DNA from: Clostridiales bacterium
Lineage (GTDB): Bacteria > Bacillota > Clostridia > Peptostreptococcales > Acidaminobacteraceae
Direction of reading: 5' to 3'
Assembly: GCA_016933835.1 (NCBI GenBank)
Contig: JAFGAC010000002.1
Span: 26,809 to 90,808, forward strand
DNA: 64,000 nt
A program made the translations under genes and the position numbers. The number at the start of each line of letters is the position of its first letter. The first letter of the stretch is position 1. Shown piece by piece: positions 3,445-59,489 of this stretch. Under the pieces are notes generated by a model. That model made no database searches, was not told the DNA's origin, and was given only the letters and a program-made list of their open reading frames with translations.

Positions 3445-6473
<3,029 letters not shown>

Positions 6474-6482
6474 GTGAAATAG

Positions 6483-32819: not shown

Positions 32820-33422
32820 ATGATAAAATCTCTTTTAGAATTACAAGAGCTTTATAAAGATTATTCAGACGTTATTGGTAAAATTAATAGAGAAGTAAAA
32901 AAAGAAAATTTATTTACAGTTATAAGAGGTCTCTATGAAACAGATTATAGGACTCCAGGTCATCTATTATCTGCATATATATATGGTCCTTCTTATCTAT
33001 CCTTTGAATACGCGCTTTCTCAGCATGGACTTATTCCAGAAAAAGTATCTGTATATACAAATGCTAGTTTCAATAAAAGAAAATCAAAAAAATATACAAA
33101 TACATTTGGAATATATACCTATCGTGATATTCCTAAAAAGGCATTTCCATATGGAATTAAAGCTCATATTGTAAATGGATATTCCTATTTTATTGCTACA
33201 AAAGAAAAAGCGCTTTGCGATAGCTTATACATTGCACCGCCACAAACAAGTATGAAAAGGCTTAAAATTTTAATGTTTGACGATTTAAGAATTGATATAG
33301 ACATGTTTTTTGAACTTGATGTTGAAGAATTATTGTTTTTATGTGATAAATATAAGTCTAAAAATATATGGTTACTAAAAAAAATAGTTTTGAAGGAGAT
33401 GATCGGCAATGACAATAATTGA
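32820..33422 (+). CDS. abiEi: AbiEi-family antitoxin / transcriptional regulator (type IV TA, abortive infection)
   Basis: 200 aa. Pattern IRGLYE...PSYLSFEYALSQHGLIPE...ATKEKALCDSLY is typical of AbiEi_3/4 domain proteins. Overlaps the downstream nucleotidyltransferase gene by 14 nt. Confidence 0.75.
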   Translation: MIKSLLELQELYKDYSDVIGKINREVKKENLFTVIRGLYETDYRTPGHLLSAYIYGPSYLSFEYALSQHGLIPEKVSVYTNASFNKRKSKKYTNTFGIYTYRDIPKKAFPYGIKAHIVNGYSYFIATKEKALCDSLYIAPPQTSMKRLKILMFDDLRIDIDMFFELDVEELLFLCDKYKSKNIWLLKKIVLKEMIGNDNN

Positions 33423-34272
33423 TCAAATGTTAGAGCGATATAATTTGATAACATTAGAAGATAAAAAAAACGCTTTAAAAGAAATTATGCAAGAAATTGT
33501 TTTAGCGGGTCTATCCAAAACTGATTTTTTTAAGAATACTGCTTTTTATGGCGGTTCAGCACTTAGAATTTTCCATAATTTAGATCGTTTCTCTGAAGAC
33601 TTGGATTTTACATTAATAGCAAGGGATGATAATTTTACTTTGGAACAATATATACCAATGATTTCTCATACAGTTGAATCACTAGGTTTGTCATTTGGAA
33701 TAGAGAGCAAAGATAAGAAAATTGACTCAAATATAAAATCAGCATTTCTTAAAGGTAATACAAAAGAACAATTCTTGATTTTTTATCCGGATTCAGATCA
33801 AAATGCATTTATTCAGAGTAACGAAATTATTAAAATTAAGCTTGAAATTGATATTGACCCACCTTTATATGCAACTACTGAATTGGAATATCGATTACTG
33901 CCTTACCCATATGAAGTTAGAATTTACGATAAGCCATCATTGTTTGCAGGAAAAATACATGCAGTTATTGCAAGGAGCTGGAAAAACAGAGTCAAAGGTA
34001 GAGATTTTTATGATTATGTCTATTACCTTTCTACAAACACGCCTGTAAATCTAAAACATCTGGAAGCAAGATTAAGGCAAACAAAAACAATTGGCGATGA
34101 AACAATTTTGACAAAATAAATATTGATAGAATTATTAAATGAATGCTTTGAAAGTATAGACTTTGAAGGTGTAAAACGTGATGTTTTACCCTTTATAAAG
34201 GATGTCGAGAGTTTAAGTGTATGGAGCCCTCAATTTTTTAAAAGTATTACTAAAAGAATAGAAGTGCTTTAA
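33409..34272 (+). pseudogene. abiEii: AbiEii/AbiGii-family nucleotidyltransferase toxin interrupted by an in-frame TAA at 34117-34119
   Basis: The 236-aa ORF has NTase motifs (FYGGSALRIFHNLDRFSEDLDF). Reading in the same frame past the TAA gives ILIELLNECFESIDFEGVKRDVLPFIKDVESLSVWSPQFFKSITKRIEVL, then a stop at 34270-34272. This looks like the usual C-terminal segment of the family. Confidence 0.7.
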
Positions 34273-38353: not shown

Positions 38354-38824
38354 ATGGAGTTAATTATTGACTTGATTCAAAATTATAAACAGCAGACAAA
38401 ATATTATTATGATATCGAACAGATCAATGGTCGTGTGCATCATAATAAAGATACAGCCGAGAGCATCATTGAAGGGTTGCATCAAAGTCAAGAAATCATC
38501 GACAAGATTAAAATTCTCAATGATGAAAAATCACATATAGAAAAGAATTTTATCAGATATTATAAAATGGAACGATTTGATCTTGCAAATTTGCCGGACC
38601 TCATAAGTCCAGATCTTCAGATGGAACTTCTTGAAACTATCGAGAAACTCAGATATGTGATTAAAAGTGTCATCGATATAAAATCTGGAGAGAAAACAAT
38701 TCTCGAAGAAGATCTTTTAAGAGCGAAGGAAAAGATGAAAGAAACTATCAGAGGTGTAAATGCTGTCCATGGTTACAAGAAAAAGACTTATGATTCTGTT
38801 TTTATAGATAAGGTATCAAAATAG
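38354..38824 (+). CDS. hypothetical helical protein in FliT-like position
   Basis: 156 aa, good RBS, located downstream of fliS. No diagnostic motif. Confidence 0.5.
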   Translation: MELIIDLIQNYKQQTKYYYDIEQINGRVHHNKDTAESIIEGLHQSQEIIDKIKILNDEKSHIEKNFIRYYKMERFDLANLPDLISPDLQMELLETIEKLRYVIKSVIDIKSGEKTILEEDLLRAKEKMKETIRGVNAVHGYKKKTYDSVFIDKVSK

Positions 38825-38884
38825 AAATATAATAACTATTAATTAAATCTATGGGAATTATAAAAAAAACTATAGACGCACGTA

Positions 38885-38908
38885 AAGGCTGATATTTCAG
38901 TCTTTTTT
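38885..38908 (+). terminator. intrinsic terminator ending the flagellin/fliD/fliS unit
   Basis: AAGGCTGA / TCAGTCTT 8-bp stem (one G-U pair), loop TATT, followed by a T-run. Confidence 0.55.
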
Positions 38909-38949
38909 GGCTTTTTTGATGATGTTTGGTGATTTGTTAAAAAAAAAAC

Positions 38950-38990
38950 CCTTGTAAGTTGTAAGGAATTCATAATATTATATGAATATA
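38950..38990 (+). promoter_or_regulatory. putative sigma-A promoter of the flgB operon
   Basis: TTGTAA at 38952-38957 with TATTAT at 38976-38981 (18-nt spacer). A second TTGTAA lies at 38959-38964. Weak call. Confidence 0.3.
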
Positions 38991-39014
38991 TTAGGTGGAA
39001 TGGAAGTGTTTTAA

Positions 39015-39431
39015 ATGAGTATCAATACCAATCTTTTTACGGATACAAGCTTGACGGTGCTAAAAAAGGCACTGGATGCTTCAACAATGAGAAATGAGAC
39101 GATCAGCAACAACATTGCCAATGTGAACACAAAGGACTACAAGGCAAAACGGGTTGTTTTTGAAGATGAACTTAAAAAAGCTCTGAGTTCAGGCTCTGAA
39201 AAAGGATTGGCGACAACACATAAAGGACACATCGGTGCCAGTAATGAAGTCAATCGCATTCAGCCGCAAATTGTCGAAGATGCTGCATCTACAGTTAAAA
39301 GTGATGGGAACAATGTTGACATCGACGTGGAAATGGTAGAACTCGCTAAGAACCAGTTGATTTATAATACTTTAGTTCAGCAGACATCCAAAAAGTACTC
39401 AAATCTTGGTTATGTTATAAATGGAGGTTGA
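39015..39431 (+). CDS. flgB: flagellar basal-body rod protein FlgB
   Basis: 138 aa. [18 protein letters not shown] rod motif. Confidence 0.93.
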
Positions 39432-39436
39432 TCATC

Positions 39437-39856
39437 ATGAAATTATTTAGTTCTTTGAATATCAGTGCGTCGGGACTTTCTGCCGAACAGGTCAGAATGG
39501 ATACAATTTCATCAAACATAGCGAATGTGAATACCACAAGAACAGAAGATGGTGGTCCCTATATAAGAAAAGTGGCAGTTTTCAAAGAAAAATTGGATAA
39601 AGCCATGACGTCAGCGGGAAGTAGGCTTGCAGGCGTTGAAGTGTCTGAAATAGTGGATGACACGACACCACTCAAAAAAGTCTATGATCCCAATCATCCG
39701 GATGCGGATGAAGAAGGCTATGTGCTGATGCCAAATGTGGATATTTTGAATGAAATGGCAGACCTTATCGTAGCCACAAGATCATATGAAGCCAACGTCA
39801 CAGCGCTAAATGCCAGCAAAAGCATGTATTTGAAGGCTTTGGAAATTGGAAGATAA
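39437..39856 (+). CDS. flgC: flagellar basal-body rod protein FlgC
   Basis: [22 protein letters not shown] and [10 protein letters not shown] motifs. Start placed at ATG 39437 after GGAGG (ORF track TTG at 39428). Confidence 0.94.
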
Positions 39857-39859
39857 TTA

Positions 39860-40163
39860 TGACCTATCCCTGCATCTTTGATGCAGCGGAAGGTGTTGGC
39901 TACGTTACCAAATCATAGATTTGGACTTCGCAACATTTGACCTACTAAATTATTTAGTAAGTTACGTCATGAGTCGTGCCGTTAACTGAATCAAAGATTC
40001 AGACTTTACGACATCTGACCTACCAAGTTATTTAGTAAATTACGTCATGAGTCGTGCCGTTAGCTGAATCAAAGATTCAGACTTTACGACATCTGACCTA
40101 CCAACGGACCATAGGTTCGGGTTAGGTCATGAAGACTGCGAAATGACCTATCCCTGCATCTTT
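39860..40163 (+). repeat. hairpin-repeat array A: three 78-nt units, a 50-nt hairpin unit and a 20-nt truncated unit, each starting TGACCTAYC
   Basis: Unit starts at 39860, 39938, 40016, 40094 and 40144. Units 2 and 3 are near-identical tandem copies. Each 78-nt unit folds into two hairpins. Detail is in the findings. Confidence 0.9.
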
Positions 40164-40276
40164 AAAACATTTGAGGATTTTGTCGTTGTCACTGCACATT
40201 TTAAACTAAAAATATACATAAAATAAAAGATTACTATTAGGGAATAAAAGAAGAATTCTTAATAAAGGAGAAATAA

Positions 40277-40303
40277 TTGAACTTACATGATATGGTAGTT
40301 TGA
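40277..40303 (+). other. 8-codon leader mini-ORF with the only strong SD upstream of fliE
   Basis: AAAGGAG at 40264-40270, 6 nt, then TTG 40277. Reads TTG AAC TTA CAT GAT ATG GTA GTT TGA, in the same frame as fliE. Confidence 0.4.
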
Positions 40304-40309
40304 TTATAT

Positions 40310-40606
40310 GTGAATAATATGCAAGTGAATCCTGTATCTCAATATATGAATTTAATGAATACACAGATGGAAGAGGAATCAAGCAAGGTTGATTTTTCAG
40401 CTGTCATGAAAGATTATTTGACAGATGTCAATGATATGCAGGTTTCTTCTGATCAAAGCACAAATGACCTGATTCTTGGTGAAACAGAAAACATTCATGA
40501 TGTCATGATCAAGGCTGAAGAAGCGAAACTTGCACTGGAATTGACAGTACAGGTGAGAAATAAGGTAATAGAGGCTTATCAAGAATTGATAAGAATGCAA
40601 ATATAA
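40310..40606 (+). CDS. fliE: flagellar hook-basal body protein FliE
   Basis: 98 aa (GTG 40310) or 95 aa (ATG 40319). C-terminal AEEAKLALELTVQVRNKVIEAYQELIRMQI is typical of FliE. No SD directly upstream. Confidence 0.88.
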   Translation: MNNMQVNPVSQYMNLMNTQMEEESSKVDFSAVMKDYLTDVNDMQVSSDQSTNDLILGETENIHDVMIKAEEAKLALELTVQVRNKVIEAYQELIRMQI

Positions 40607-40609
40607 TTA

Positions 40610-40820
40610 TGACCTATCCCTGCATCTTTGATGCAGCGGAAGGTATTGGCTACGTTACCAAATCAAAGATTTGGCTAATGAAGCCGACACCTACCAACGA
40701 ACCATAGGTTCGGGTTAGGTCATTTCGCAGTCTCGACAACGATATCCATGATTATTTAAGAAAGATATCTGTCTACGTTGCGTTTGACCTACCAACGAAC
40801 TTTCAGTTCGGGTTAGGTCA
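40610..40820 (+). repeat. hairpin-repeat array B: a copy of unit 1 plus two copies of the TGACCTACCAACGAAC...GTTCGGGTTAGGTCA hairpin
   Basis: 40603-40674 matches 39853-39924 at 70/72, including the TAA stop codon. Hairpins at 40685-40722 and 40785-40820 match 40094-40129. Confidence 0.9.
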
Positions 40821-40825
40821 TAACT

Positions 40826-40915
40826 CCGAAAGGGTAATCCACTTGTAAGAGTGGTGCACAAAGTAACAGATCTTCAATCATTGTAAATGGCTTTGAAGAT
40901 GGCTGTACTACCGAA
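40826..40915 (+). ncRNA. candidate c-di-GMP-I (GEMM-I) riboswitch aptamer
   Basis: GGGTAATCCACTTGTAAGAGTGGTGCACAAAGTA aligns 24/34 with the V. cholerae Vc2 core GGGCAAACCAUUCGAAAGAGUGGGACGCAAAGCC (from memory). First hairpin CCACTT-GTAA-GAGTGG has a GNRA loop. Second hairpin is ACAG/ATCTTCAA...TTGAAGAT/GG/CTGT. Ends ...CTACCGAA. Confidence 0.55.
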
Positions 40916-40955
40916 GAGAAACTGGAAAACTGTGTTTCTTCGGCGCAGTTTTTTT
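40911..40955 (+). terminator. terminator-like expression platform upstream of fliF
   Basis: CCGAAGAGAAAC (40911-40922) / GTTTCTTCGG (40934-40943) stem, then CGCAG and T7 (40949-40955). An alternative AAAACTG/CAGTTTT pairing is possible. Confidence 0.5.
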
Positions 40956-40984
40956 AATGAATTTTTTTGAGAAGGAGAAACATT

Positions 40985-42568
40985 ATGTCAGAGTCAAATA
41001 AACCTGGAAATAGAGTAGTAAGAGTTTGGAATGGAATGGATAGAGGTAGAAAAGTAAGTCTAGGGGCAATATTGCTGACTTTAGTTATTGCTTTTGGTGT
41101 CTACTATATGTTTTTTGGCAGGGTGAGCTATACTGCTTTGTTTACAACTCTTGAAATGAAGGACTCTGCAAATATAGTCGCTAAACTGGATGAGATGAAA
41201 ATCAGTGACTATAAAATTGAAAATGGCGGCAGTACAATTTTGGTTTCTGATAAAGTGGTTGATCGAATTCGATTGGAGTTGGCAATGAGTGATCTTTTGC
41301 CGGATACAGGCGTCGGTTATGAAATATTTGATACAGCCAGCTTTGCAGTAACAGATGAAGATAGAAAAATAATGTATCAGAGAGCGCTTGAAGGTGAACT
41401 CGCCAGATCGATTATGAGTCTGGCTGAAGTTGACTATGCAAGGGTACATCTTGCGTTGAGCGAAGAAACACTTTTTTCTAGAGAGGCTTCTCCTGGAAAT
41501 GCAACTGTCATCATTGAACTGAATCCACTTCAAAATTTTACTACTGATCATGTGAGGGGAATAATTGCGCTTGTTTCAAGTGCGGTATCGAATATACCAC
41601 CTGAAAATGTCAGTGTTGTTGATACGAACGCCAATCTGCTGAGTGAGAATCTTTTTACAGATTCTGAATCAATGTCAGCAGGACAGGTAGCTAATGACTC
41701 TATTGCAATTCAAAGACAGTTTGAAGGTCAACTTGAAGATGAACTTCAAAGAATGTTGGAGTTGACTTTCGGAAAAGGAAAAATTCTTGTCAATGTCAAT
41801 GCTAAATTGGATTTGAATTCAGAACAGGTCAGTATCATTGAGTATAATGATACTGGTGTTATTAGGTCACAGCAGGATTACATAAGTAAAACAACAACAG
41901 GAGCTACAACGGTAGATTCCATGAGTCCTGTAGATAACAATATTGAATATTATGTTGAAAACACAGAAGAAGCAATGAATGATTCAACTGTCAGCAATTA
42001 TGAGACTACTAGAAATTATGAAGTAGGAGAGACAAGAACCAGTAGGGTCAAAGCACCGGGGGAAGTAGTCAGTCTTTCGACTTCAGTCATTTTTGACGGA
42101 ACGTTATCGGATGTTGACAAGACTTCCATAAAAAATATTGTCGTTGCAGCTATTGGGCTCGATGAAGCAAGAGGCGACATTGTCAGTGTAGAAGGCATCG
42201 TTTTTGACAAGACATATGAAGAAAATGCCATTGCGGAATTCAATGTGGCACAGGAAGAATTTTTAATAGAGCAAGACACACAAAAGAAATACATGTTCTA
42301 TGGCAGTATTGCCGGAGGCGTGATTGTACTTATATTGATTATAATTTTTATAATAAGAATCATCAGAAGTCCGAAAAAAGCGGACAACAGTTTCTATGAA
42401 GCGATGCAGCCAATTCCAATCAGTGAATTGACTGGTGAGTCACGAGGAACGCACATCAAACCTTTTGAAGAGCAGGATATGGAAAAAGGGATTAAACATT
42501 ATGCGGAAGAGAATCCTGAAAAATTAGCAGATTTGGTAAAAACCTGGATGCTGAAAGATGAGGGGTAA
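40985..42568 (+). CDS. fliF: flagellar MS-ring protein FliF
   Basis: Start at ATG 40985 after AAGGAG. N-terminal TM segment, YTALFTTLEMKDSANIVAKLDE, C-terminal TM segment and FliG-binding tail. Confidence 0.94.
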   Translation: MSESNKPGNRVVRVWNGMDRGRKVSLGAILLTLVIAFGVYYMFFGRVSYTALFTTLEMKDSANIVAKLDEMKISDYKIENGGSTILVSDKVVDRIRLELAMSDLLPDTGVGYEIFDTASFAVTDEDRKIMYQRALEGELARSIMSLAEVDYARVHLALSEETLFSREASPGNATVIIELNPLQNFTTDHVRGIIALVSSAVSNIPPENVSVVDTNANLLSENLFTDSESMSAGQVANDSIAIQRQFEGQLEDELQRMLELTFGKGKILVNVNAKLDLNSEQVSIIEYNDTGVIRSQQDYISKTTTGATTVDSMSPVDNNIEYYVENTEEAMNDSTVSNYETTRNYEVGETRTSRVKAPGEVVSLSTSVIFDGTLSDVDKTSIKNIVVAAIGLDEARGDIVSVEGIVFDKTYEENAIAEFNVAQEEFLIEQDTQKKYMFYGSIAGGVIVLILIIIFIIRIIRSPKKADNSFYEAMQPIPISELTGESRGTHIKPFEEQDMEKGIKHYAEENPEKLADLVKTWMLKDEG

Positions 42569-42570
42569 AT

Positions 42571-43602
42571 ATGGCAAGTAGAAATAGCAGTAGACAAGCG
42601 CATGAATTGACAGGGGTAGAAAAGGCGGCGATATTTTTCATTACTTTAGGGCCTGACCGCTCTGCGAAAGTAATGAAGCTTTTGCCTGAGAAGATGATAG
42701 AACAAATCACATATGAGATCTCAAACATTACAAAAGTCGAACCTACCATGAGAGATGAAGTCATCAAGGAATTTGTCGATATGAATGAAAAGTTTGAGTA
42801 TTTCAAAGAGGGTGGCGTTGATTTTGCAAGAGATGTCCTTACAAAGGCATTGGGTTCTCAAAAGGCGCAGGACATCATTGAGACATCTTCACAAATGGCT
42901 CTTACCCGAAAGCCCTTCATGCTGGCTAGAAGATCGGATCCGATTCAACTTTTAAAAACAATCATTTCAGAACATCCGCAGACCATCGCTTTGATTCTGT
43001 GTTTTTTGCAACATGACAAAGCGGCGTCCATTCTTTCAAGCATACCGGATGAATTGCAGTCGGATGTTGCTTTTAGAATAGCAACCATGAACAAGACGTC
43101 TCCGCTGGTAATCAAGAGAGTTGAAAAAATATTGGATGAAAAATTATCCAATGTTGTCGACAACAATTTCGAATCCTACGGCGGTGTGGATACATTGGTC
43201 GGTATCTTGAATTCAGTCAATAGACCTACAGAGAAAAACATTATGGAGCAGTTGGATACTAGAGACCACGATTTGGCAGAGAAGATCAAGCTCAGCATGT
43301 TTGTATTCGAAGATATCGTTACGCTTGACAATGCAGCTATTCAAAGAGTTCTTCGTGAAATCGACAACAATGATCTTGTTGTGGCCATGAAAGGTGCTTC
43401 GGATGAAGTTATCGATGCGATCTTTACAAATCTTTCAAAACGTGCAGCTGAAACATTGAAAGAAGACATGGAGTTCTTGGGACCTGTACGTCTTACTGTT
43501 GTTGAAGAAGCGCAACATAAGATTGTCGGTGCGATCAGAAGGCTTGAAGAGGTCGGTGAGATTTTCTTGAATAGAGGAGGAGAAGATGCAGTCATCTTAT
43601 AG
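42571..43602 (+). CDS. fliG: flagellar motor switch protein FliG
   Basis: 343 aa. LTGVEKAAIFFITLG and MFVFEDI motifs. Confidence 0.95.
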   Translation: MASRNSSRQAHELTGVEKAAIFFITLGPDRSAKVMKLLPEKMIEQITYEISNITKVEPTMRDEVIKEFVDMNEKFEYFKEGGVDFARDVLTKALGSQKAQDIIETSSQMALTRKPFMLARRSDPIQLLKTIISEHPQTIALILCFLQHDKAASILSSIPDELQSDVAFRIATMNKTSPLVIKRVEKILDEKLSNVVDNNFESYGGVDTLVGILNSVNRPTEKNIMEQLDTRDHDLAEKIKLSMFVFEDIVTLDNAAIQRVLREIDNNDLVVAMKGASDEVIDAIFTNLSKRAAETLKEDMEFLGPVRLTVVEEAQHKIVGAIRRLEEVGEIFLNRGGEDAVIL

Positions 43603-44341
43603 GATTTATAAAAATCAGAACATCTCCGAAGATATCAGGGAAAAAGAGATTCCGGTGAAAGACAACTCTCAGATGAGTGAATACGGTTTTTCATCCAATC
43701 AGGCGAACTCTTTAATCAGGAAAGCAAAAGAAGAAGCCAATCGGATAAAGGAAACGTCAAAAGCTTTGGAAGATGAAATTGTTCAAAAAGCTTTGAAAGA
43801 TGCAGAAATAATAATCGAAGAAGAAAAGAAGAAGGCATATGCCGAAGGATTGGAAATCGGAAGAGATATTGGATTTGACAATGGATATGAAGATGGATTG
43901 GTGGCTAGCAAGAAAGAAAGTGAAATAATTTTACTGGAAGCAAAAAGTACGATAAATGATGCAATTGAAGAAGCACAGAAGATTATTGAAAACGCAGTTG
44001 AGAAAATAATTGAATTATCTGTAAAAATTGCAGGTGAAATCATAAAAAAAGAGATAGAACTTGACGATACTATTATTGTAGGGATTGCAAAAGCCGCTCT
44101 TAATGAAGTAAGGAATCTTAGACATATAACAATCAAGGTGTTGCCGAAGGACAAAAAAATCATCGAGGAGAATCTGCTGAGTTTCAAGGATATCTGTCCA
44201 GATGCATATTTTACGATACTCAAGGATGCGACTTTAAAAGAAAACGGTTGTGTTATTGAAACGGATAAAAAAGTGATTGATGCGACAATAGACAGTCAAC
44301 TGCAAGTAGTAAAATCGATTTTACTCGAGGTGAGAGGATAA
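43586..44341 (+). CDS. fliH: flagellar export apparatus protein FliH
   Basis: 251 aa Glu/Lys-rich coiled coil followed by a FliH C-terminal domain. Lies between fliG and fliI. Confidence 0.85.
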   Translation: MQSSYRIYKNQNISEDIREKEIPVKDNSQMSEYGFSSNQANSLIRKAKEEANRIKETSKALEDEIVQKALKDAEIIIEEEKKKAYAEGLEIGRDIGFDNGYEDGLVASKKESEIILLEAKSTINDAIEEAQKIIENAVEKIIELSVKIAGEIIKKEIELDDTIIVGIAKAALNEVRNLRHITIKVLPKDKKIIEENLLSFKDICPDAYFTILKDATLKENGCVIETDKKVIDATIDSQLQVVKSILLEVRG

Positions 44342-45649
44342 TTGTTAAGTAAAATTCCTTTCGATCGCTTTGAAAAAGCCATTGATGATAAAAAATTATA
44401 TAAGGTTGTCGGTAAAGTAACTCAGATTATCGGATTGACAATTCAAGTGGAAGGCATTCAAAGCTTTATTGGAGAAGTCTGCGAGATTGTCATCGGAGAT
44501 CATACGAAAGTACTTTCAGAAGTAGTTGGATTCAGAGATGATATCAGTCTATTGATGCCGTTGGGTGAACTGACAGGGATTGGTCCTGGAAGTCTGGTCT
44601 ATCCACTGGGGCATTCATTGAAAATAAAAGTAGGAAAAGAACTTTTGGGAAAAGTGGTTGATGGCTTGGGAAGACCCTTGTCTGGAGAAGAGTATGATCT
44701 TGAAGAGACTGTAAGCATTTATCAGAAACCCCCAAATCCCATGACGCGCAGACCCATTGAAAATGTCATGTCGACAGGAATAAGATCCATAGACGGTATG
44801 TTGACCTGTGGTGAAGGACAGAGATTGGGAATATTTGCTGGAAGTGGTGTCGGTAAAAGTACGCTCTTAGGGAAAATATCAAGACTCTCAGATGCCGATG
44901 TCAATGTCATTGCGTTGATTGGAGAGAGAAACAGAGAACTCCTCAACGTGATCCACAAAGACTTAGGCGAAGAGGGACTTAAAAAATCTGTTGTTTTAGT
45001 TGCAACATCGGATCAGCCGGCCCTTATAAGATCAAAAGGCGCTTTTGTAGCAACGGCAATTGCCGAGTATTTTAGAGATCAGGGACTGAAGGTCATGTTT
45101 ATGATGGACTCGGTGACGAGGTTCGCCATGGCCGAAAGAGAAATAGGTCTTGCTATTGGAGAACCGCCTACTTCTAAAGGTTACACACCATCGGTTTTCG
45201 CGAGACTCCCGAAACTTCTTGAGAGATCAGGAACATCGGATAAAGGATCAATCACCGCTTTTTACACAGTACTGGTTGAAGGCGATGACATGAATGAACC
45301 GATTGCAGATGCCGTTAGGGGAATTTTGGATGGACACATCGTATTATCGAGAAAATTGGCGTCAAAGAATCACTTTCCAGCCATTGATGTGCAAAACAGC
45401 ATCAGTCGTTTGATGAAACAGATTGTGTCGGATGATCATTATAACGCGGCAGGTAAGATGAGAGATGCTTTGGCTGTATACGAAGAAGCTGAAGATTTGA
45501 TCAATGTAGGTGCTTATGTAAAAGGATCGAATCCTAAGATTGACAAATCAATCTTAGTGCATGACTCAATTATAAAATTTTTACAGCAGGGTAGCGAGGA
45601 ACTTTCGACTTTCACAGAAACGACAACAATTATGGAAAATATTTTTTAA
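44342..45649 (+). CDS. fliI: flagellum-specific ATPase FliI
   Basis: 435 aa, TTG start. Walker A GSGVGKSTLLG, Walker B MFMMDSVTR. Confidence 0.96.
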   Translation: MLSKIPFDRFEKAIDDKKLYKVVGKVTQIIGLTIQVEGIQSFIGEVCEIVIGDHTKVLSEVVGFRDDISLLMPLGELTGIGPGSLVYPLGHSLKIKVGKELLGKVVDGLGRPLSGEEYDLEETVSIYQKPPNPMTRRPIENVMSTGIRSIDGMLTCGEGQRLGIFAGSGVGKSTLLGKISRLSDADVNVIALIGERNRELLNVIHKDLGEEGLKKSVVLVATSDQPALIRSKGAFVATAIAEYFRDQGLKVMFMMDSVTRFAMAEREIGLAIGEPPTSKGYTPSVFARLPKLLERSGTSDKGSITAFYTVLVEGDDMNEPIADAVRGILDGHIVLSRKLASKNHFPAIDVQNSISRLMKQIVSDDHYNAAGKMRDALAVYEEAEDLINVGAYVKGSNPKIDKSILVHDSIIKFLQQGSEELSTFTETTTIMENIF

Positions 45650-45662
45650 GGAGCCTGATTAA

Positions 45663-46106
45663 ATGAAAAAATTCAAATATTCCTTGGAAAACATATTGAA
45701 GCTACGAAATGACAATGAAGATAAAAAATTGACAGAGATGTCAGTTTCCCTGAATCAATATCTGAAAGATGTGGAATCAGAGGAAGTGATGGCTCATACG
45801 ATAGAAGAAACAATCGATAAAATGCATTCAACAAACGCATCAAATGTCAGAGATCAAAAATCCTATTATTTGTATCTGGAGAAACTCAGATATGAACTTG
45901 AGGAGCAGAAAAAAATAGTAGACCAGGCAAAGATGGCTTACGAAGCAAAAAAAGAAGAATACATCAAAGCGCAAATGGATCGCAAACTGATTGAAAAGCA
46001 CAAAGAAAAGAAAATCGAAGCATCAGAATTAGAAGTAAAAAGGGCAGAGGAACAATTGCTCGGTGAAATGGCTATTGCTTCTTTCAATCGAAAGAAGTTT
46101 CAATAG
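45663..46106 (+). CDS. fliJ: flagellar export protein FliJ
   Basis: 147 aa coiled-coil protein. YSLENILKLR start is typical of FliJ. Follows fliI. Confidence 0.85.
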   Translation: MKKFKYSLENILKLRNDNEDKKLTEMSVSLNQYLKDVESEEVMAHTIEETIDKMHSTNASNVRDQKSYYLYLEKLRYELEEQKKIVDQAKMAYEAKKEEYIKAQMDRKLIEKHKEKKIEASELEVKRAEEQLLGEMAIASFNRKKFQ

Positions 46107-46136
46107 ATAATACTCAATTGAAAAGGAGGTGAAAAT

Positions 46137-47279
46137 GTGAATGTAAATATGGCACAATTGAATAGCAAACAAGTAATAAATGAAGCAAAAGAAAAGATCA
46201 ATCTTTCTTTGAATGGTGAAGCAGAAGCTGTAGATTTTCAAACGGTCATGGCCAGTCTGATGGGATTGTCTTTAAATCCAGAAATGCCATCAGTTGAGAT
46301 GGAAATGCCATCAGTAGATATTAAAAGCGAAGAAGTAAAGTCCTTGCTAAGTGAATTATCTTTGAAAGTAGACAACAAAAATATGAAGATGCTTTTGATC
46401 AATGAATCTTTTAATCTGCAGGAAGCACCGACCGATATCTCTAAACTGGATGTTTTGAAAGCACTGATGAGTGAAGTTCAGACGGAATTGGGCGTTAAGG
46501 AAATCGCTGCATCGACGGAACCTAGTGAAGTGGAATTCATGCCACAGAGTTATCAGAATCTATTGAAGATTAAATTCAAAGAGGATGATTCTGAGAAGGG
46601 CGAGTTGAAAGTTCAGTTTAAGGTGATGGAAAAAGGAATTTCTGAAAGTCATCTGGAAGTTGAAAAAGGAGAAACATCAGGAAAAGAGAACTTGTCAGGT
46701 AAAGCATTCGGCCTTGAAAAAGCTTTGGAAAATATCAATAAGGATGACAAGGAGACTTTCAAGATTGAAGATGGGAAACTCATGAAAGTGGAAGATCCAT
46801 CAATCAAGAAAAATGAGCAGCAGCCTGCAATTGAAACAGGGCATCCTAAAACAATCACCAACACGAAAGAAATACGTGAGGCGATGATCGATTCTTTGAA
46901 GGAGGTTCAAACGGAAGGTGTCTCGAAGATGAAAGTGATGCTGGCACCGAAGGAACTGGGACAAGTGGAAATCGAACTCAGGATGGAGCAAGGAAGAATA
47001 AAAGGCGAAATCAAAGTCATGAACGCAGAAATCAAAAATCAGATTGAACAGCTGATTGCACCGATCAAGGAAACACTCAAGGATCAGAATATTCAACTGA
47101 AAGATTTTCAAGTGACTGTATTCGACCATGGAGCATCAGAACATTTTTCTCAAAATCAAAATATGAATTCTCATCAGAACAGGTATCAAGCAGAAAGTTT
47201 GGAATACCAATATGATGAAATCATTCCAGAAGTTACACAAATGATGGAGAATCAAGGTAGTTTGAACATTTTGGCATAG
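46137..47279 (+). CDS. fliK: flagellar hook-length control protein FliK
   Basis: 380 aa, GTG start. C-terminal Flg_hook domain (LAPKELGQVEIELRMEQGRIKGEIKV). Confidence 0.85.
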   Translation: MNVNMAQLNSKQVINEAKEKINLSLNGEAEAVDFQTVMASLMGLSLNPEMPSVEMEMPSVDIKSEEVKSLLSELSLKVDNKNMKMLLINESFNLQEAPTDISKLDVLKALMSEVQTELGVKEIAASTEPSEVEFMPQSYQNLLKIKFKEDDSEKGELKVQFKVMEKGISESHLEVEKGETSGKENLSGKAFGLEKALENINKDDKETFKIEDGKLMKVEDPSIKKNEQQPAIETGHPKTITNTKEIREAMIDSLKEVQTEGVSKMKVMLAPKELGQVEIELRMEQGRIKGEIKVMNAEIKNQIEQLIAPIKETLKDQNIQLKDFQVTVFDHGASEHFSQNQNMNSHQNRYQAESLEYQYDEIIPEVTQMMENQGSLNILA

Positions 47280-47291
47280 GAGGTGAAAATA

Positions 47292-47771
47292 GTGGAAATA
47301 GGAAGCATAACAAGTCAAACCTATACAAGTACGACAGAAGCGAGCAATGACAGCTTGGGAAAAGATGACTTCATGAAAATATTGGCCGCACAACTTCAAT
47401 TTCAAGATCCGATGGAAGGTGGAGACAACTCGGCATATGTCGCACAGCTGGCACAATTTTCTTCGCTTGAACAGATGCAGAATCTGAATGTGAGTTTGAG
47501 TGAATTAAAGACGAATCAGAACTTGCTTTATGGCACGATGTTGATTGGAAAAATGGTGGATATAGCATTTGGAGATGAATATGTTTCAGGTGTCGTAGAT
47601 AAAGTGAAACTGACGGATTCCATTTTGAAAGTTGTTATCGGCAATCAAGAATATGATGCTAAGTACATCAAAAGCATGGAAGGTACTGAAATCGTGGATT
47701 TTGGACAAGAAATCGATGAACTGCAGGAGCAACTGGATGGCTTGTCGAGTGATGGGGATGTGATTGAATGA
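47292..47771 (+). CDS. flgD: flagellar hook capping/assembly protein FlgD
   Basis: DFMKILAAQLQFQDPMEGGDNSAYVAQLAQFSSLEQM. GTG 47292 has 8-nt spacing from AGGAGG. The ORF-track GTG at 47283 abuts the SD. Confidence 0.9.
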   Translation: MEIGSITSQTYTSTTEASNDSLGKDDFMKILAAQLQFQDPMEGGDNSAYVAQLAQFSSLEQMQNLNVSLSELKTNQNLLYGTMLIGKMVDIAFGDEYVSGVVDKVKLTDSILKVVIGNQEYDAKYIKSMEGTEIVDFGQEIDELQEQLDGLSSDGDVIE

Positions 47772-48157
47772 TAAACAAAATCAATAATCAAAATATTCAT
47801 TCGGTGGAAAAAAACAGCCAAAAGGCAGGAAATCAGAAAATAGATAGAAATTCAGTTAGATTTCAACAGCTTTATCAACAGGAATTGGCTGATGACAAAA
47901 CAATTAAAATATCTGCCCATGCAAGACAAAGACTTGAACAACGCAATATTCAGTTGAGTGAAAAAGACATGCAGGCATTGAATAGAGGGATGCAAAAGGC
48001 TGAAGAAAAAGGTTCAAAAGAATCATTGTTGTTGTATAAAGATTTGGCTTTTGTTGCAAGTGTGAGGAATCGAACACTGATTACAGCAGTCAATCAAAAT
48101 GAAACAAAGGAAAATGTGTTTACAAATATAGACAGTGCGGTAATAATTGAAGAATAA
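47768..48157 (+). CDS. flagellar operon protein (TIGR02530-like, between flgD and flgE)
   Basis: 129 aa. IKISAHARQRLEQRNIQLSEKDM...LAFVASVRNRTLITAV pattern and conserved position. Confidence 0.7.
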   Translation: MINKINNQNIHSVEKNSQKAGNQKIDRNSVRFQQLYQQELADDKTIKISAHARQRLEQRNIQLSEKDMQALNRGMQKAEEKGSKESLLLYKDLAFVASVRNRTLITAVNQNETKENVFTNIDSAVIIEE

Positions 48158-48241
48158 CAGGCTGGACCTCCCTGAGGAAGCTTAGTGCCTTTGACTGATT
48201 GATAAGGTGCGTATTCTCATATAAACTAAGGAGGAATTTTT

Positions 48242-49129
48242 GTGTTAAGATCTTTGTATTCAGGTGTAAGTGGTATGAGAAGCAATCAGACTAAAATGGA
48301 CGTAATAGGTAACAATATAGCCAATGTAAATACGACAGCATTCAAGACAGGACGGGCAAGGTTCCAGGATTTGTTTTCACAGACATTGTCAAATGCACAG
48401 GCGCCATCAGCAACAGGCAGTGGTGGTATCAACCCGAAACAAGTTGGATTAGGTGTTTCAGTAGCTGCAGTCGATACAGTCATGAGCGGCGGCGCACTGC
48501 AACCGACAGGAAGAGACTTGGACTTCGCTATTGAAAATGAAGGTTTCTTCATTGTTTCACAAGATACAACAGGTGACATCAAAAGATACACTAGAGATGG
48601 TGCTTTCTTCACTGATTTTGAGGGAAACCTTGTCAATGCGGAAGGACTTCGCGTGTTGGGATATGAAGCAGATTATGCGACAGGTACAGTTACAACACCT
48701 ACAGATACAAGTGATTATGCCAGTCTTCAAACAATCACTATCCCAAATACAATCACGATCGGCGGCAATGACTTGAGTCTGGAAACATTCTCAATCGATG
48801 GTTCTGGATTGATTCAAGGTATCTACAGTGATGGCAATGTGTATAAGCTAGGTCAGGTGGGAATCGCCAAGTTCAACAACCCAGGTGGATTGGAGAAACT
48901 TGGAGGCAACACTTACAGAGACACTAGAAACTCTGGACCTGTTGAAATTGGTATTGCGAATCAAGATGGATTTGGTACAATCAGACAGGGTGTCGTTGAA
49001 ATGTCTAATGTAGATCTGGCAAATGAATTTACAGAAATGATCATTACCAGCAGAGCATATCAGGCGAATTCAAGAACAATCACAACATCTGATGAAATGC
49101 TTCAAGAGCTTTTGAATCTTAAACGATAA
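48242..49129 (+). CDS. flgE: flagellar hook protein FlgE
   Basis: 295 aa, GTG start after AAGGAGG. N-terminus [32 protein letters not shown]-terminus SRAYQANSRTITTSDEMLQELLNLKR. Confidence 0.94.
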   Translation: MLRSLYSGVSGMRSNQTKMDVIGNNIANVNTTAFKTGRARFQDLFSQTLSNAQAPSATGSGGINPKQVGLGVSVAAVDTVMSGGALQPTGRDLDFAIENEGFFIVSQDTTGDIKRYTRDGAFFTDFEGNLVNAEGLRVLGYEADYATGTVTTPTDTSDYASLQTITIPNTITIGGNDLSLETFSIDGSGLIQGIYSDGNVYKLGQVGIAKFNNPGGLEKLGGNTYRDTRNSGPVEIGIANQDGFGTIRQGVVEMSNVDLANEFTEMIITSRAYQANSRTITTSDEMLQELLNLKR

Positions 49130-49140
49130 ATAATAAATCA

Positions 49141-49170
49141 AGGGTTGGGCTGTAAATAGCCCACCCCTTC
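49141..49170 (+). other. GC-rich intra-operon hairpin between flgE and flbD (no U-tract)
   Basis: AGGGTTGGGCT / AGCCCACCCCT stem (one mismatch) with loop GTAAAT. Followed by CCAATAAGAAGGG (the flbD SD), not by a T-run. Confidence 0.6.
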
Positions 49171-49189
49171 CAATAAGAAGGGCTAAATT

Positions 49190-49375
49190 ATGATAGAATT
49201 GACTTCGTTGCATGATGAAAAATTTTATATCAATATCGACAGAATAGAAAAAATGGAAGTTTTATCTGATACCTTGATTACTTTAGTTGATGGAAAAGTA
49301 ATCAGAGTGAAAGAACAACCTGAAGAAGTAGTGGATAGAATTGTCGCATTCCAAAGACGGATAGAGTGGAGGTAG
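49190..49375 (+). CDS. flbD: flagellar protein FlbD
   Basis: 61 aa. MIELTSLHDEKFYINIDRIEKME...LVDGKVIRVKE is typical of FlbD. Confidence 0.9.
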   Translation: MIELTSLHDEKFYINIDRIEKMEVLSDTLITLVDGKVIRVKEQPEEVVDRIVAFQRRIEWR

Positions 49376-49378
49376 CTT

Positions 49379-50173
49379 ATGAAAAAAATTGATATTATTC
49401 CGATACTCGCACTTTTTCTTGGAACGACTCTTATATTGGTAGCTATGGCCATGGGTGGCAATTTGATTATTTTCTGGAGTCTTTCCTCAATGATTATCAC
49501 GATGGTAGGATCTTTTTTGGCTTTGATGGCGAGTTACCCGTTCAAAATTTTGAAACAGGCGCCGATGATCACCAAACAGGCTTTTGTAGAACCGCTTGAT
49601 AATCGTGCAGAACTTGTGTCGCTGGTTTCGAATCTTTCAAGGAAGGCGCGATCTGAGGGTTTGCTGTCATTAGAGGATGAGTTGACTGATATTGATGATG
49701 AATTTCTAACAAAAGGACTTCAAATGGTAATCGACGGTATTGAGCCTGAAAATATCACACAGATACTCGAACTTGAAATTGCAGCTATTGAAAGGCGGCA
49801 CGGCATTGGACACAGTATATTCAAAGCTTGGGCTGAACTGGCTCCTGCCTTTGGTATGATTGGAACACTTATAGGTTTGATTACGATGCTCAGTGACTTG
49901 AGTGATATGAGCAAGATAGGTATTGGTATGGCGACAGCCCTGATTACAACTTTCTATGGGGCCTTCTTCGCCAATATGGTGTTGACGCCAATTGCCAATA
50001 AACTTCAAAGTCAAACTGAAAATGAAATCTATACACGTGAGATGATGATTGAAAGTGTATTGTCTATACAATCAGGAATCAATCCAAGAATAGTTGAAGA
50101 GAAATTGAAAACATTCTTGACAACTAAAGAAAAACTGGTAAAACCTGAGGCGGTGAACGAAAATGCCTCGTAA
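49379..50173 (+). CDS. motA: flagellar stator protein MotA
   Basis: 264 aa, four TM helices, conserved PAFGMIGTLIGLI plug/channel region. Confidence 0.93.
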   Translation: MKKIDIIPILALFLGTTLILVAMAMGGNLIIFWSLSSMIITMVGSFLALMASYPFKILKQAPMITKQAFVEPLDNRAELVSLVSNLSRKARSEGLLSLEDELTDIDDEFLTKGLQMVIDGIEPENITQILELEIAAIERRHGIGHSIFKAWAELAPAFGMIGTLIGLITMLSDLSDMSKIGIGMATALITTFYGAFFANMVLTPIANKLQSQTENEIYTREMMIESVLSIQSGINPRIVEEKLKTFLTTKEKLVKPEAVNENAS

Positions 50174-50918
50174 GAAAAAACCACCTGCAGCTAGTGGGGG
50201 TTCACCTGCATGGATGACAACATTTTCGGATTTAATGACACTTCTTCTCACCTTTTTCATACTTTTGTTTTCATTTTCAACCTTGGATGCCATAAAATTT
50301 AAAAACGTGGCGAGTGCTCTGCAAAGTGTTTTATTGGGTGAAGCAAAACCAACGATTTTTCCGAATGACATCCCACCGGGAAACATTCCGATTATGGATC
50401 CTATTCCTGTTCCTGCAACCGATGAAACGGAAACTATCGACAATGAATTGACTATATTGTATGAGATGGTCATGAAATTTGTGGAAAGTGAAAATATGCA
50501 GGCAAATATCACTGTAAGCAAGGATTTAAGAGGTGTTATCATAGACATCAATGAAAGAGTGTTGTTTGATTCTGGAAAAGCAGATTTAAAACCTGAAAGC
50601 AAGGTAGTCTTAGAAAAGGTGTATGAACTGATCAGTCAATTTGAAAATGAATTGATCATTGAAGGACATACGGATGACAATCCCATCAATACGGCTCAGT
50701 TCCCAAGCAACTGGGAGCTATCAGTCATACGGGCTGTCAATGTTTTAAGGTATTTTACGGAAGTTAAAAATATCAGTCCTACTAGGATTTCAGCTGCAGG
50801 ATATGGTGAATATCAACCGATGGAAATGGATGATACACAGGTTGACAAAGCCTTTAATAGACGTGTGAATATATTGATTTTAGTGGATTCAAATAAGGAG
50901 GATTTAAACATTGGCTGA
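50163..50918 (+). CDS. motB: flagellar stator protein MotB
   Basis: 251 aa. WMTTFSDLMTLLLTFF with the conserved Asp. OmpA-like C-terminus (NWELSVIRA...NRRVNI). Confidence 0.93.
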   Translation: MPRKKKPPAASGGSPAWMTTFSDLMTLLLTFFILLFSFSTLDAIKFKNVASALQSVLLGEAKPTIFPNDIPPGNIPIMDPIPVPATDETETIDNELTILYEMVMKFVESENMQANITVSKDLRGVIIDINERVLFDSGKADLKPESKVVLEKVYELISQFENELIIEGHTDDNPINTAQFPSNWELSVIRAVNVLRYFTEVKNISPTRISAAGYGEYQPMEMDDTQVDKAFNRRVNILILVDSNKEDLNIG

Positions 50919-51396
50919 CAGAATGGACCCGAATGCAATCAAGCAAGCACCTGAGAAGAAAAAGAAAAAGAAAAAACTGCTCATTATTATTCCGCTTATC
51001 ATTGTTTTGTTGGCAGGGGGTTTTGTGGGATATGCATTTTTTACAAAATCTTTTTTCTTTAAAGTAGATGGTGAAGCAGCGGTTGTAAAAATAGATGAAA
51101 AGATTTACGATATGGAAGAATTCATCATCAATTTAAATGATGAAGGCAGCAGAAGATATCTAAAGACAAAAATTGTCTTGGCATATGAAAATGATAAAGA
51201 TTTGGATTTATTTAATAAAAATATACCTCAAATGAGGGATCTCATCATAGAGACACTGAGAGCTAAGACTTCTGAAGATGTGATGAATGTAGAAAACACA
51301 GAATCTCTTAAAAATGAAATTAGAGACAATGTGAATAAAATTTATGACGAGGATATTGTTTTGGAAGTTTATTTTGTGGATTTCTTGATTCAATAG
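50911..51396 (+). CDS. fliL: flagellar basal body-associated protein FliL
   Basis: 161 aa, TTG start. Lys-rich N-terminus, single TM segment, FliL domain (FIINLNDEGSRRYLKTKIVL). Confidence 0.88.
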   Translation: MADRMDPNAIKQAPEKKKKKKKLLIIIPLIIVLLAGGFVGYAFFTKSFFFKVDGEAAVVKIDEKIYDMEEFIINLNDEGSRRYLKTKIVLAYENDKDLDLFNKNIPQMRDLIIETLRAKTSEDVMNVENTESLKNEIRDNVNKIYDEDIVLEVYFVDFLIQ

Positions 51397-51404
51397 GTGA
51401 AGTA

Positions 51405-51746
51405 ATGGATTATAATACCACATCAAGTTTGCTGAAATTATTTGTTGCATTGCCGTTGGTTATTTTACTGGCGTATATCAGTCTTAAATTCGGCAATAAG
51501 TATTTAAGAAAAATCAACAATGGAAAAGTTTTAAATGTGATTGAGACAGTTCCTGTTTTCAACAAAGCAGCATTGAGCATTGTAAAAATCGGGAAGGAAT
51601 ATCATGTCATTGGTGTTACAGAGGCCAATATAGTCGATATCAAGATTCTTGATGAATCTGAAATCGCCTTATTGAACAAAAATGAAGAACAGGCCAGTCG
51701 TCTTGATTGGAAATCTATTAAAGGAAAACTGACTCAACATGATTAA
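51405..51746 (+). CDS. fliO: flagellar biosynthesis protein FliO/FliZ
   Basis: 113 aa, single N-terminal TM segment. Lies immediately upstream of and overlapping fliP. Confidence 0.75.
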   Translation: MDYNTTSSLLKLFVALPLVILLAYISLKFGNKYLRKINNGKVLNVIETVPVFNKAALSIVKIGKEYHVIGVTEANIVDIKILDESEIALLNKNEEQASRLDWKSIKGKLTQHD

Positions 51747-52497
51747 AAAAATAGTGTTTTTAACAATTTTATTGAGCTTATTTATCTTCTCGATGGTATC
51801 ATTTGCTGATCAAGTTAATATTGAAATTCCAAATGTGGATTTGAATATCACTGCACCTGAGACAGCAAGTGACTATGTGGGCAGTATAAAAATTTTGATA
51901 TTGATGACAGTCTTGACATTGGTTCCTTCCATTGTCATATTGATGACATCTTTTACTAGAATTATCATTGTTTTATCTTTAATGAGAAGTGCGCTGGCAA
52001 CGCAACAGACACCCCCCAATCAAATATTGGTAGGTCTGGCACTTTTTCTGACACTATTTATCATGGCACCGGTATATACCAATGTCATAGATAATGCTAT
52101 CAATCCTTACTTGGCGGAGACAATCACCCAGGAAGAGGCAATTGAAATTGGATCTAAACCAATAAAAGACTTTATGATCAAGCAGACTAGAGAAAAAGAT
52201 CTAATGTTGTTCGAAGAGATATCAGGTTCGGTCGCAACGGCTAATCCTGATGACATAAAATTTACGACACTCATTCCCGCTTTTGTCATCAGTGAACTGA
52301 AAACTGCTTTTCAAATGGGTTTTATGATTTTTATTCCATTTATTGTCATCGACTTGATTGTCGCAAGTATTCTCATGTCGATGGGTATGTTCATGCTGCC
52401 ACCGGTCATGATTTCATTGCCATTCAAGCTACTTCTTTTTGTAATGGTGGACGGTTGGTATTTAATAGTCAAATCTTTGGTAGAAAGCTTTGTGTAG
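51739..52497 (+). CDS. fliP: flagellar export gate protein FliP
   Basis: 252 aa. Signal-like N-terminus and conserved TPPNQILVGLALFLTLFIMAPV. Confidence 0.95.
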   Translation: MIKKIVFLTILLSLFIFSMVSFADQVNIEIPNVDLNITAPETASDYVGSIKILILMTVLTLVPSIVILMTSFTRIIIVLSLMRSALATQQTPPNQILVGLALFLTLFIMAPVYTNVIDNAINPYLAETITQEEAIEIGSKPIKDFMIKQTREKDLMLFEEISGSVATANPDDIKFTTLIPAFVISELKTAFQMGFMIFIPFIVIDLIVASILMSMGMFMLPPVMISLPFKLLLFVMVDGWYLIVKSLVESFV

Positions 52498-52506
52498 GTG
52501 GATATT

Positions 52507-52776: not shown

Positions 52777-52781
52777 ATGAG

Positions 52782-54763: not shown

Positions 54764-54766
54764 AAT

Positions 54767-58795: not shown

Positions 58796-58804
58796 GCGGA
58801 GGTC

Positions 58805-59488: not shown

Positions 59489-59489
59489 A

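Follow-up and report, generated by a model that had tools for sequence, protein, structure and literature searches.

A c-di-GMP-I aptamer and a probable OFF-type terminator between fliE and fliF in a clostridial flagellar operon

Introduction

Can a flagellar operon respond to cyclic di-GMP (c-di-GMP) from a point inside it, behind its first genes? This question is raised by the spacer between fliE and fliF in a stretch of 64,000 nucleotides of a Clostridiales bacterium (contig JAFGAC010000002.1), referred to below as the window. GEMM RNAs, the aptamers of riboswitches for c-di-GMP, have been tied to flagellar operons since their discovery, and fliE and fliF were found among the gene families associated with them, but only within downstream operons (PMC1950547). 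The riboswitch Cd1 (Cdi-1-3) of the flgB operon of Clostridioides difficile was shown experimentally to be an OFF switch (PMC9262584, PMC6366702). An earlier note on the DNA of the window had claimed a c-di-GMP-I (GEMM-I) riboswitch directly upstream of fliF and had contrasted it with the C. difficile riboswitch upstream of flgB, a contrast that agrees with the published position of the latter (PMC6366702), the aptamer of the window lying between fliE and fliF. We analysed this locus by covariance-model searches, comparison with related flagellar loci and RNA folding, and we find it likely that a functional c-di-GMP-I riboswitch controls transcription termination before fliF and acts as an OFF switch.

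Results

The fliE-fliF spacer contains a c-di-GMP-I aptamer

The 64-kb window was scanned on both strands with the covariance models of 4227 Rfam families at their curated gathering scores. Only one match reached this threshold: the c-di-GMP-I family RF01051, at 40823-40915 on the + strand (as are all parts of the switch and all gated or ungated flagellar genes given below), with 51.5 bits for a gathering score of 35 and an E value of 3.8e-7. The covariance search that the earlier note had suggested thus returned a single match, which is also full-length (model positions 1-87 of 87). Our own covariance model R1, built from seven fliF-leader aptamers (that of the window and those of the loci L002-L007 described below), gave 79.9 bits for the aptamer of the window. 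We have very little doubt that 40823-40915 is a c-di-GMP-I riboswitch aptamer.

The anatomy of the aptamer was read from the alignment to RF01051, and its key positions are designated here as equivalents of G20, A47 and C92, labels that follow the numbering of the Vibrio cholerae aptamer Vc2. All three ligand contacts of the model are present. The G20-equivalent is G40833, in the middle of a GGG triplet (40832-40834); this residue contacts one ligand guanine and selects c-di-GMP over cyclic GMP-AMP (cGAMP) (PMC9262584). The A47-equivalent A40860 is the base that intercalates between the two ligand guanines. The C92-equivalent C40911, located by the alignments to both RF01051 and the variant family RF03167, lies in the ACC tail (ACCG) at 40910-40912 and would be the Watson-Crick partner of a ligand guanine, the role held by the equivalent C87 in Cd1 (PMC9262584). 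The first hairpin (40834-40859) starts with the basal pairs G40834-C40859 and U40835-A40858, continues through an internal loop AAU/UGC and ends in a stem CCACUU/GAGUGG (40839-40854) capped by the tetraloop GUAA (40845-40848). It is followed by the junction CAAAG (40859-40863), whose last four bases form the linker AAAG (40860-40863); the inter-hairpin linker of GEMM RNAs is "virtually always AAA" (PMC1950547). The second hairpin (40862-40909) is Watson-Crick paired at 10 of the 10 modelled pairs and is longer than the family consensus, its distal extension being an insertion relative to the model. It carries a GG bulge (40901-40902), and the second G of this bulge is the G83-equivalent G40902. 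Together with the C44-equivalent C40857 it provides the inter-helix C44-G83 pair, which corresponds to the C35-G79 pair whose importance is documented in Cd1 (PMC9262584). The alignment and covariation both support the two hairpins.

The basal helix P1 would be formed by CUCCG (40824-40828) and 40912-40916, with the pairs G40828-C40912 and C40827-G40913, a C40826.A40914 mismatch, and the pairs U40825-A40915 and C40824-G40916; this helix is suggested by the sequence and by the P1 annotation of RF03167. All the features of RF01051 that we checked by sequence were found, except the AAA/GAC consensus of the internal loop, which does not define the family.

The two-hairpin fold, the equivalents of G20, A47 and C92, the C44-G83 pair and the AAA linker are shared with Vc2, which serves RF01051 as structural reference. 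In Vc2, the first hairpin is capped by a GAAA tetraloop that goes with an 11-nt receptor. The aptamer of the window differs by its GUAA loop, its lack of receptor, its GG bulge and its much longer second hairpin, and belongs in this respect to the receptor-less GEMM subtype, in which the tetraloop is GYRA, the 11-nt receptor is missing and the second hairpin bulges near its base (Weinberg 2007, PMC1950547). The triplet, the GUAA-capped hairpin, the CAAAG junction, the long bulged hairpin and the ACC tail listed in the earlier note were all recovered at the positions given above, and its assignment to the type-2 GEMM RNAs fits the published description of this subtype.

The aptamer covaries and holds its position upstream of fliF in the closest relatives

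For comparison, 28 FliF proteins were aligned and 80 FliF loci were taken from species-representative genomes with 3.5-kb flanks. Model R1 was searched in 81 sources, placements were derived from its matches and from a tblastn map of FlgB, FlgC, FliE and FliF, and the matches were confirmed with Rfam. An Rfam aptamer of the c-di-GMP-I clan was found directly upstream of fliF in all six of the closest loci (L002-L007), whose FliF proteins share 71 to 42% identity with that of the window; none was found at this place in the next eleven FliF loci. Of the six, L007 comes from an uncultured Garciella.

The seven fliF-leader aptamers pair in 99.2% of the cells of their alignment, and 9 of the 18 pairs show changes on both sides. 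The window itself contributes a compensatory change, the basal pair U40835-A40858 replacing a C-G pair of the six relatives. When the 3' partners were slid by 1-3 columns as a control, pairing fell to 24-41%, and shuffled alignments never reached the observed value on four of five measures (0 of 500), the count of further pair types being reached by 3 of 500. The columns of the G20, A47, C44 and G83 equivalents are invariant. The family match, the recurrence of the aptamer upstream of fliF in relatives and this covariation bear out the c-di-GMP-I riboswitch that had been claimed from the letters of the window.

Two mutually exclusive hairpins follow the aptamer

Two hairpins compete for the bases that follow the aptamer. 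The first, HA (40911-40943, -12.1 kcal/mol), consists of 9 bp between CCGAAGAGA (40911-40919) and UUUCUUCGG (40935-40943) and appears in the minimum-energy fold computed without constraint. Its first pairs, C40911-G40943 and C40912-G40942, occupy the C92-equivalent and the 3' strand of P1. The second, HB (40924-40954, -11.9 kcal/mol at full length), has a core CUGUGUU/GGCGCAG at 40930-40948 with the loop UCUUC, extended by pairing of GGAAAA with UUUUUU, its full pairing joining 40924-40936 to 40942-40954. The two hairpins are thus nearly isoenergetic and exclude each other. We compared folds with and without the aptamer constraint, as had been suggested in the earlier note: the free RNA folds into HA, while enforcing the aptamer, including P1, yields HB. 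Intrinsic terminators need a U-tract that abuts their stem. HB is directly abutted by a U7 tract (40949-40955), while five non-U bases (CGCAG) separate the end of HA at 40943 from this tract.

Comparison with the relatives bears on the same point. The terminators of L002-L007 were located by direct alignment of the platforms and checked by hand, as minimum-energy folding of whole leaders was too noisy. In the alignment of the seven leaders, HB and its U7 share their columns with the terminators of each of the six relatives, and the stems in these columns covary (CUGUG/CGCAG, GCUGUG/UACAGC, GCCCU/AGGGU, GUCCU/AGGGC and GGCCUUC/GAAGACC). HA has no counterpart in the terminator columns of the relatives. 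We conclude from these models and alignments that HB probably serves as the terminator and HA as its antiterminator, in which case ligand binding should promote termination. The earlier note had described a terminator hairpin at 40911-40943 followed by T7 at 40949-40955. Both the hairpin and the T-tract are indeed there, but the hairpin is HA, to which we would give the role of antiterminator, and it is HB that abuts the tract. The platform of the window therefore combines a terminator hairpin and U7 with a competing hairpin that uses the 3' end of the aptamer. A similar arrangement is known in Cd1, where the ligand-recognising C87 and the adjacent G86 are both paired in the antiterminator (G147-C87 and C148-G86) (PMC9262584); in the window, C40911 and C40912 are paired in HA in the same manner and a separate terminator follows.

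We estimated the effect of the aptamer on the terminator by ensemble calculations, in which the bound state was imitated by enforcing the aptamer helices and blocking the 8-nt tail. The mean probability of the terminator base pairs increased from 0.07 in the free RNA to 0.96 with the aptamer held in the window, from 0.01 to 0.98 in L004, from 0.12 to 0.96 in L005 and from 0.00 to 0.51 in L007. The partner of the antiterminator varies among the relatives and lies in the second hairpin (3' strand), in the 5' junction or in P1 (3' strand).

The opposite sign would follow if HA were itself the terminator, with the ligand removing its 5' arm and thus turning fliF on. No local structure is more stable than HA, the unconstrained fold is dominated by it, and its overlap with the 3' end of the aptamer is a design that gives ON switches in GEMM-type RNAs such as that of pilM (PMC9262584). 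Yet the gap between HA and the U-tract is at odds with a terminator, and the hairpin homologous to the terminators of the relatives is the one that abuts the tract, 40930-40948. An ON switch would also conflict with the common pattern in which motility declines as c-di-GMP rises, and with the behaviour of Cd1 (PMC6366702). We regard this sign as improbable. A functional riboswitch that controls termination before fliF is, by contrast, very probable in our view, and provided that it functions, the competition between the two folds and the homology of the terminators make the OFF sign slightly more so.

Two other observations concern the platform. A second U7 run, which has no hairpin of its own, occurs at 40962-40968, 7 nt past the first and before the ribosome-binding site of fliF; it pairs with CGAAGAGA at 40912-40919 in the minimum-energy fold, possibly by chance. 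Chance may likewise explain why CUCC at 40824-40827 is complementary to GGAG in the ribosome-binding site of fliF.

Arguments against a functional OFF switch

Several observations weigh against a functional switch of this sign. The aptamer of the window has the lowest RF01051 score of its clade (51.5 compared to 56.7-80.5 bits). It is also the only one in which the internal loop of the first hairpin departs from the AAA/GAC consensus, kept in 6 of the 6 relatives; the C of the C44-equivalent is conserved in AAU/UGC, and with this loop the base of the hairpin can also pair in another register, isoenergetic with that of the family (-7.9 and -7.8 kcal/mol). P1 is short, contains one mismatch and could not be aligned across the relatives, which places it outside the covariation test. 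The core of HB taken alone is weak (-5.5 to -6.6 kcal/mol), and the equilibrium model blocks the tail by fiat in order to mimic the bound state. The terminator of L002 and L003 is strong and at equilibrium is present in both states (1.00 free and 1.00 with the aptamer held), with its 5' arm being more sequestered in the free RNA at the decision point (0.86 compared to about 0.55). In L006 it contains a U.U mismatch and barely forms (0.00 and 0.03). Owing to the behaviour of these three relatives, the OFF logic is unequally clear within the clade. Finally, a promoter located inside fliE or in the repeat element upstream of the aptamer is possible.

Some of these points could be accounted for by a decaying aptamer that no longer senses c-di-GMP usefully, its terminator acting as a constitutive and leaky attenuator that sets the ratio of FlgB, FlgC and FliE to the downstream products. 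The low score would fit such a decay, as would the substitutions unique to the AAA/GAC loop with their isoenergetic register and the 217-nt element inserted at the 5' edge of the aptamer. However, the score still exceeds the gathering threshold by 16 bits, all ligand-contact and inter-helix positions are intact, and the only basal pair that changed was compensated, from C-G to U-A. Antiterminator and terminator are likewise both preserved and energetically balanced, and the inserted element is predicted to fold on itself, with the aptamer helices formed. Decay thus seems unlikely, to about the same degree as the ON sign, and we favour a functional c-di-GMP sensor. The AAU/UGC loop lowers the confidence in full affinity, not in family membership.

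A sensor of another cyclic dinucleotide, such as 3'3'-cGAMP in GEMM-Ib, or a member of the GGC variant class is far less probable still: the aptamers are structurally near identical, cGAMP riboswitches initially carried a c-di-GMP annotation (PMC9262584) and the GGC family RF03167, the only addition of a permissive Rfam scan of 38800-41100 besides a meaningless mir-232 match, scores nearly as high as RF01051 (51.3 and 51.5 bits), but it remains below its own gathering score of 59, the selectivity position G40833 is G and not the A of GEMM-Ib, the A47 position is A and not G, and flagella together with a PilZ protein in the operon are a classical c-di-GMP context. With CAAAG instead of CGAAG at the diagnostic junction, the element reads as canonical c-di-GMP-I and not as the GGC variant.

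Flagellar gene context and reach of the switch

The open reading frames (ORFs) of the window and their Pfam domains agree with the earlier placement of the element in a flagellar cluster directly upstream of fliF. Three genes of the operon precede the switch and would escape it: flgB (39015-39431), flgC (39428-39856) and fliE (40310-40606). The first gated gene, fliF, encodes the MS-ring protein (40985-42568; Pfam YscJ_FliF and YscJ_FliF_C) and has a ribosome-binding site AGGAG at 40973-40977. Its start at ATG 40985 is also that of the gene call in an independent assembly, and its product matches, at 100% identity, a protein that bears the name FliF in a Clostridiales metagenome-assembled genome (MAG). 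The rest of the gated string (42571-60233) comprises, in this order, fliG, fliH, fliI, fliJ, fliK, flgD, a flgE-like gene, motA, motB and fliL, followed by fliO, fliP, fliQ, fliR, flhB, flhA, flhF, a flhG-like gene, a gene with PilZNR and PilZ domains (YcgR-like, 58805-59488) and, just behind it, a sigma-70-family gene in the FliA/SigD position (59490-60233). Counted from fliF through the sigma gene, the string measures 19.2 kb, close to the roughly 20 kb including sigD, and excluding flgB, flgC and fliE, that had been put forward at first. Terminator-like sites in this stretch are no commoner than in shuffled sequences, and those of the + strand are all inside ORFs.

Flagellin, flaG, fliD and fliS genes are found upstream of flgB, which is preceded by a terminator-like site at 38884-38905 and a promoter-like site at 38952-38981. 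A consensus scan of the + strand at 40400-40822 gave no sigma-70-like match, and a TATAAT read at the last codons of fliE has no -35 element at usable spacing. An own promoter for the riboswitch, which was considered, is therefore unsupported, as no sigma-70-like match occurs on the + strand between fliE and the aptamer. In L002-L006 the aptamer starts at most about 10 nt past the fliE stop codon, which leaves no room for a promoter in between. The simplest reading is that transcripts would enter from the flgB promoter and be attenuated within the operon. On balance we lean towards a riboswitch that acts in the whole clade as an intercistronic attenuator, one that at high c-di-GMP would switch off fliF, the export gate, the motor and sigD and leave the flgB-flgC-fliE mRNA intact. 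If this holds, the genes of the proximal rod and of FliE are uncoupled from c-di-GMP control.

The PilZ gene lies within the gated operon, so that a protein-level c-di-GMP brake would itself be shut off by an RNA-level sensor. Outside the window, a sister assembly of this organism encodes a GGDEF-domain protein of 288 aa about 8 kb upstream of dnaA (L085, 1741-2607). This gene suggests an ability to synthesise c-di-GMP, and together the GGDEF and PilZ genes fit an organism that uses this messenger. The window starts in the chromosomal origin region, with dnaA, dnaN, a recF-like gene, gyrB and gyrA at 505-8906, which puts oriC at most about 60 kb from the flagellar and chemotaxis genes. A protein with an AbiEii-type toxin domain (type IV toxin-antitoxin) is encoded at 33409-34119, about 500 nt upstream of the flagellin gene.

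The same aptamer class occupies three places in flgB-flgC-fliE-fliF

In the window and L002-L007 (n = 7) the aptamer is located between fliE and fliF. No aptamer precedes flgB in the window, nor in L003-L006, where the flgB leader is inside the fetched flank. In 16 of the 80 loci it is located upstream of flgB, as in C. difficile, and one of these, Alkalibaculum sporogenes (L028), has tandem aptamers at 1432-1512 (68.7 bits) and 1625-1706 (70.1 bits). The third placement, between flgC and fliE, was found in two loci, the Firmicutes MAG UBA2203 (L062, 2978-3060, 68.8 bits) and a Pelotomaculum MAG (L063, 1960-2047, 65.0 bits), each aptamer having its own terminator.

The flgB-leader aptamers, found in Clostridia and Tissierellia, belong to the same family and the same gene cluster as those of the fliF leaders and are usually followed by a terminator with a U-tract. 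They differ by their place before flgB and, in many cases, by their platform. In nine of these leaders (L023, L025, L029, L032, L036, L038, L040, L041 and L043) a T-run starts 7-10 nt after the aptamer, which means that the terminator stem must overlap the second aptamer hairpin or be that hairpin. The design of these platforms is different from that of the clade of the window. In L006, the 5' half of the aptamer has a partial second copy (3229-3289, 29.6 bits with R1) where fliE ends, some 30 nt ahead of the complete aptamer; either the region was duplicated locally or the copy is an artefact of assembly.

A repeat element adjoins the aptamer

The fliE-fliF spacer of the window is long (380 nt) because a 217-nt repeat element, copy C (40607-40823, no strand assigned, as for the other copies), separates the aptamer from the stop codon of fliE. 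The element is bounded by the inverted repeats TTATGACCTATCCC and GGGTTAGGTCATAA and is an insertion relative to L002 and L003, where the aptamer trails the fliE stop codon by 7-8 nt. The flgC-fliE spacer is filled by copy A, made of about three tandem 78-nt units (39857-40130), together with a partial copy (40133-40182). Both full copies start directly after a TAA stop codon. A 14-nt inverted repeat (40607-40620 and 40810-40823) encloses 189 nt of copy C, and a 22-nt inverted repeat (40133-40154 and 40712-40733) brackets fliE. In the predicted RNA fold, copy C closes on itself and the aptamer helices stay formed.

Within the window, the terminal motif of the repeat occurs only in the two spacers that flank fliE. 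It was absent from some 30 kb of additional DNA, from this genome or a sister one, and from the 80 related loci, and one scan of metagenome contigs of the Joint Genome Institute (JGI) gave a single chance 21-mer, in an AT-microsatellite contig. No Rfam family covers the element in the permissive scan of 38800-41100, the sole overlap being the mir-232 match (E 4.6), and a known RNA family was discarded for this reason. A dispersed miniature inverted-repeat transposable element is unsupported as well, the motif being confined to the fliE spacers across the window, the additional 30 kb and the 80 loci. Three identities are possible for the element: a hairpin array of the REP/BOX type, a mobile insertion in low copy number, or the place where a segment can invert.

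The last possibility was considered further. The segment enclosed by inverted repeats is short and lies in a flagellar operon leader, as would be expected of an invertible switch, and the flgB and fliF contigs of independent assemblies end at the repeats, which any k-mer assembler would do. Searches with FliE from two alternative start codons found no alternative contig spanning the junction. No recombinase was found among the ORFs that were annotated, a subset of those of the window; the recombinase of C. difficile is not linked to its switch. A site-specific inversion (phase-variation) switch made of the element and of the 22-nt repeat around fliE is suggested by the inverted repeats but improbable. 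If it were true, the locus would parallel, with other sequences and another layout, the combination of riboswitch and flagellar switch in the flgB leader of C. difficile.

Discussion

The data point to a transcription attenuator between fliE and fliF. The nascent RNA 40823-40915 would fold as a two-hairpin GEMM-I aptamer. At high c-di-GMP, the ligand would be held by G40833, A40860 and C40911, P1 (40824-40828 with 40912-40916) would close and the strand CCGAAGAGA (40911-40919) would become unavailable. The hairpin CUGUGUU/GGCGCAG (40930-40948) could then form against U7, RNA polymerase would stop near 40955 and leave fliF, with about 19 kb downstream of it, untranscribed, including the genes of the export apparatus, the motor, the PilZ protein and the sigma factor of FliA/SigD type. 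At low c-di-GMP, CCGAAGAGA would pair with UUUCUUCGG (40935-40943), and this antiterminator would take the apex of the terminator and enclose its 5' arm, allowing read-through into fliF.

This OFF logic would be that of C. difficile Cd1. The two switches share the aptamer class, the regulon, an early flagellar operon including sigD, and the succession of an aptamer, an antiterminator in which the ligand-recognising cytosine is paired and an intrinsic terminator. They differ in position. Cd1 precedes flgB and gates the whole operon, whereas the switch of the window follows flgB, flgC and fliE, and termination would still yield a full flgB-flgC-fliE mRNA. The C. difficile leader also contains an invertible flagellar switch between Cd1 and flgB (PMC9262584), while in the window an element bounded by inverted repeats stands just upstream of the aptamer. 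Like Bc1, the switch of the window has more than one U-run in the platform behind its class-I aptamer; Bc1 has two complete terminators 28 bp apart (PMC11218506), unlike the second U7 of the window, which lacks a hairpin.

The element is thus a known class of switch in an unusual placement that is conserved in its clade. We found no described c-di-GMP riboswitch between fliE and fliF or in another intercistronic position, in a literature search of incomplete coverage, which argues only weakly for novelty. Annotation gains most: the terminator can now be named, as can the probable direction of the switch, which the earlier note had left open; the knowledge of how c-di-GMP riboswitches work is unchanged by it. 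For the organism, a member of an uncultured Clostridiales lineage, the finding provides a well-supported c-di-GMP input to flagellar synthesis. For the family, the 80 flagellar loci show one aptamer class at three points of flgB-flgC-fliE-fliF, before flgB, before fliE and before fliF, the last position being fixed across the clade while FliF has diverged to 42% identity. Expression platforms appear to have been rebuilt fast around a constant aptamer, and the three placements offer a natural series for the effect of the point of attenuation within an operon.

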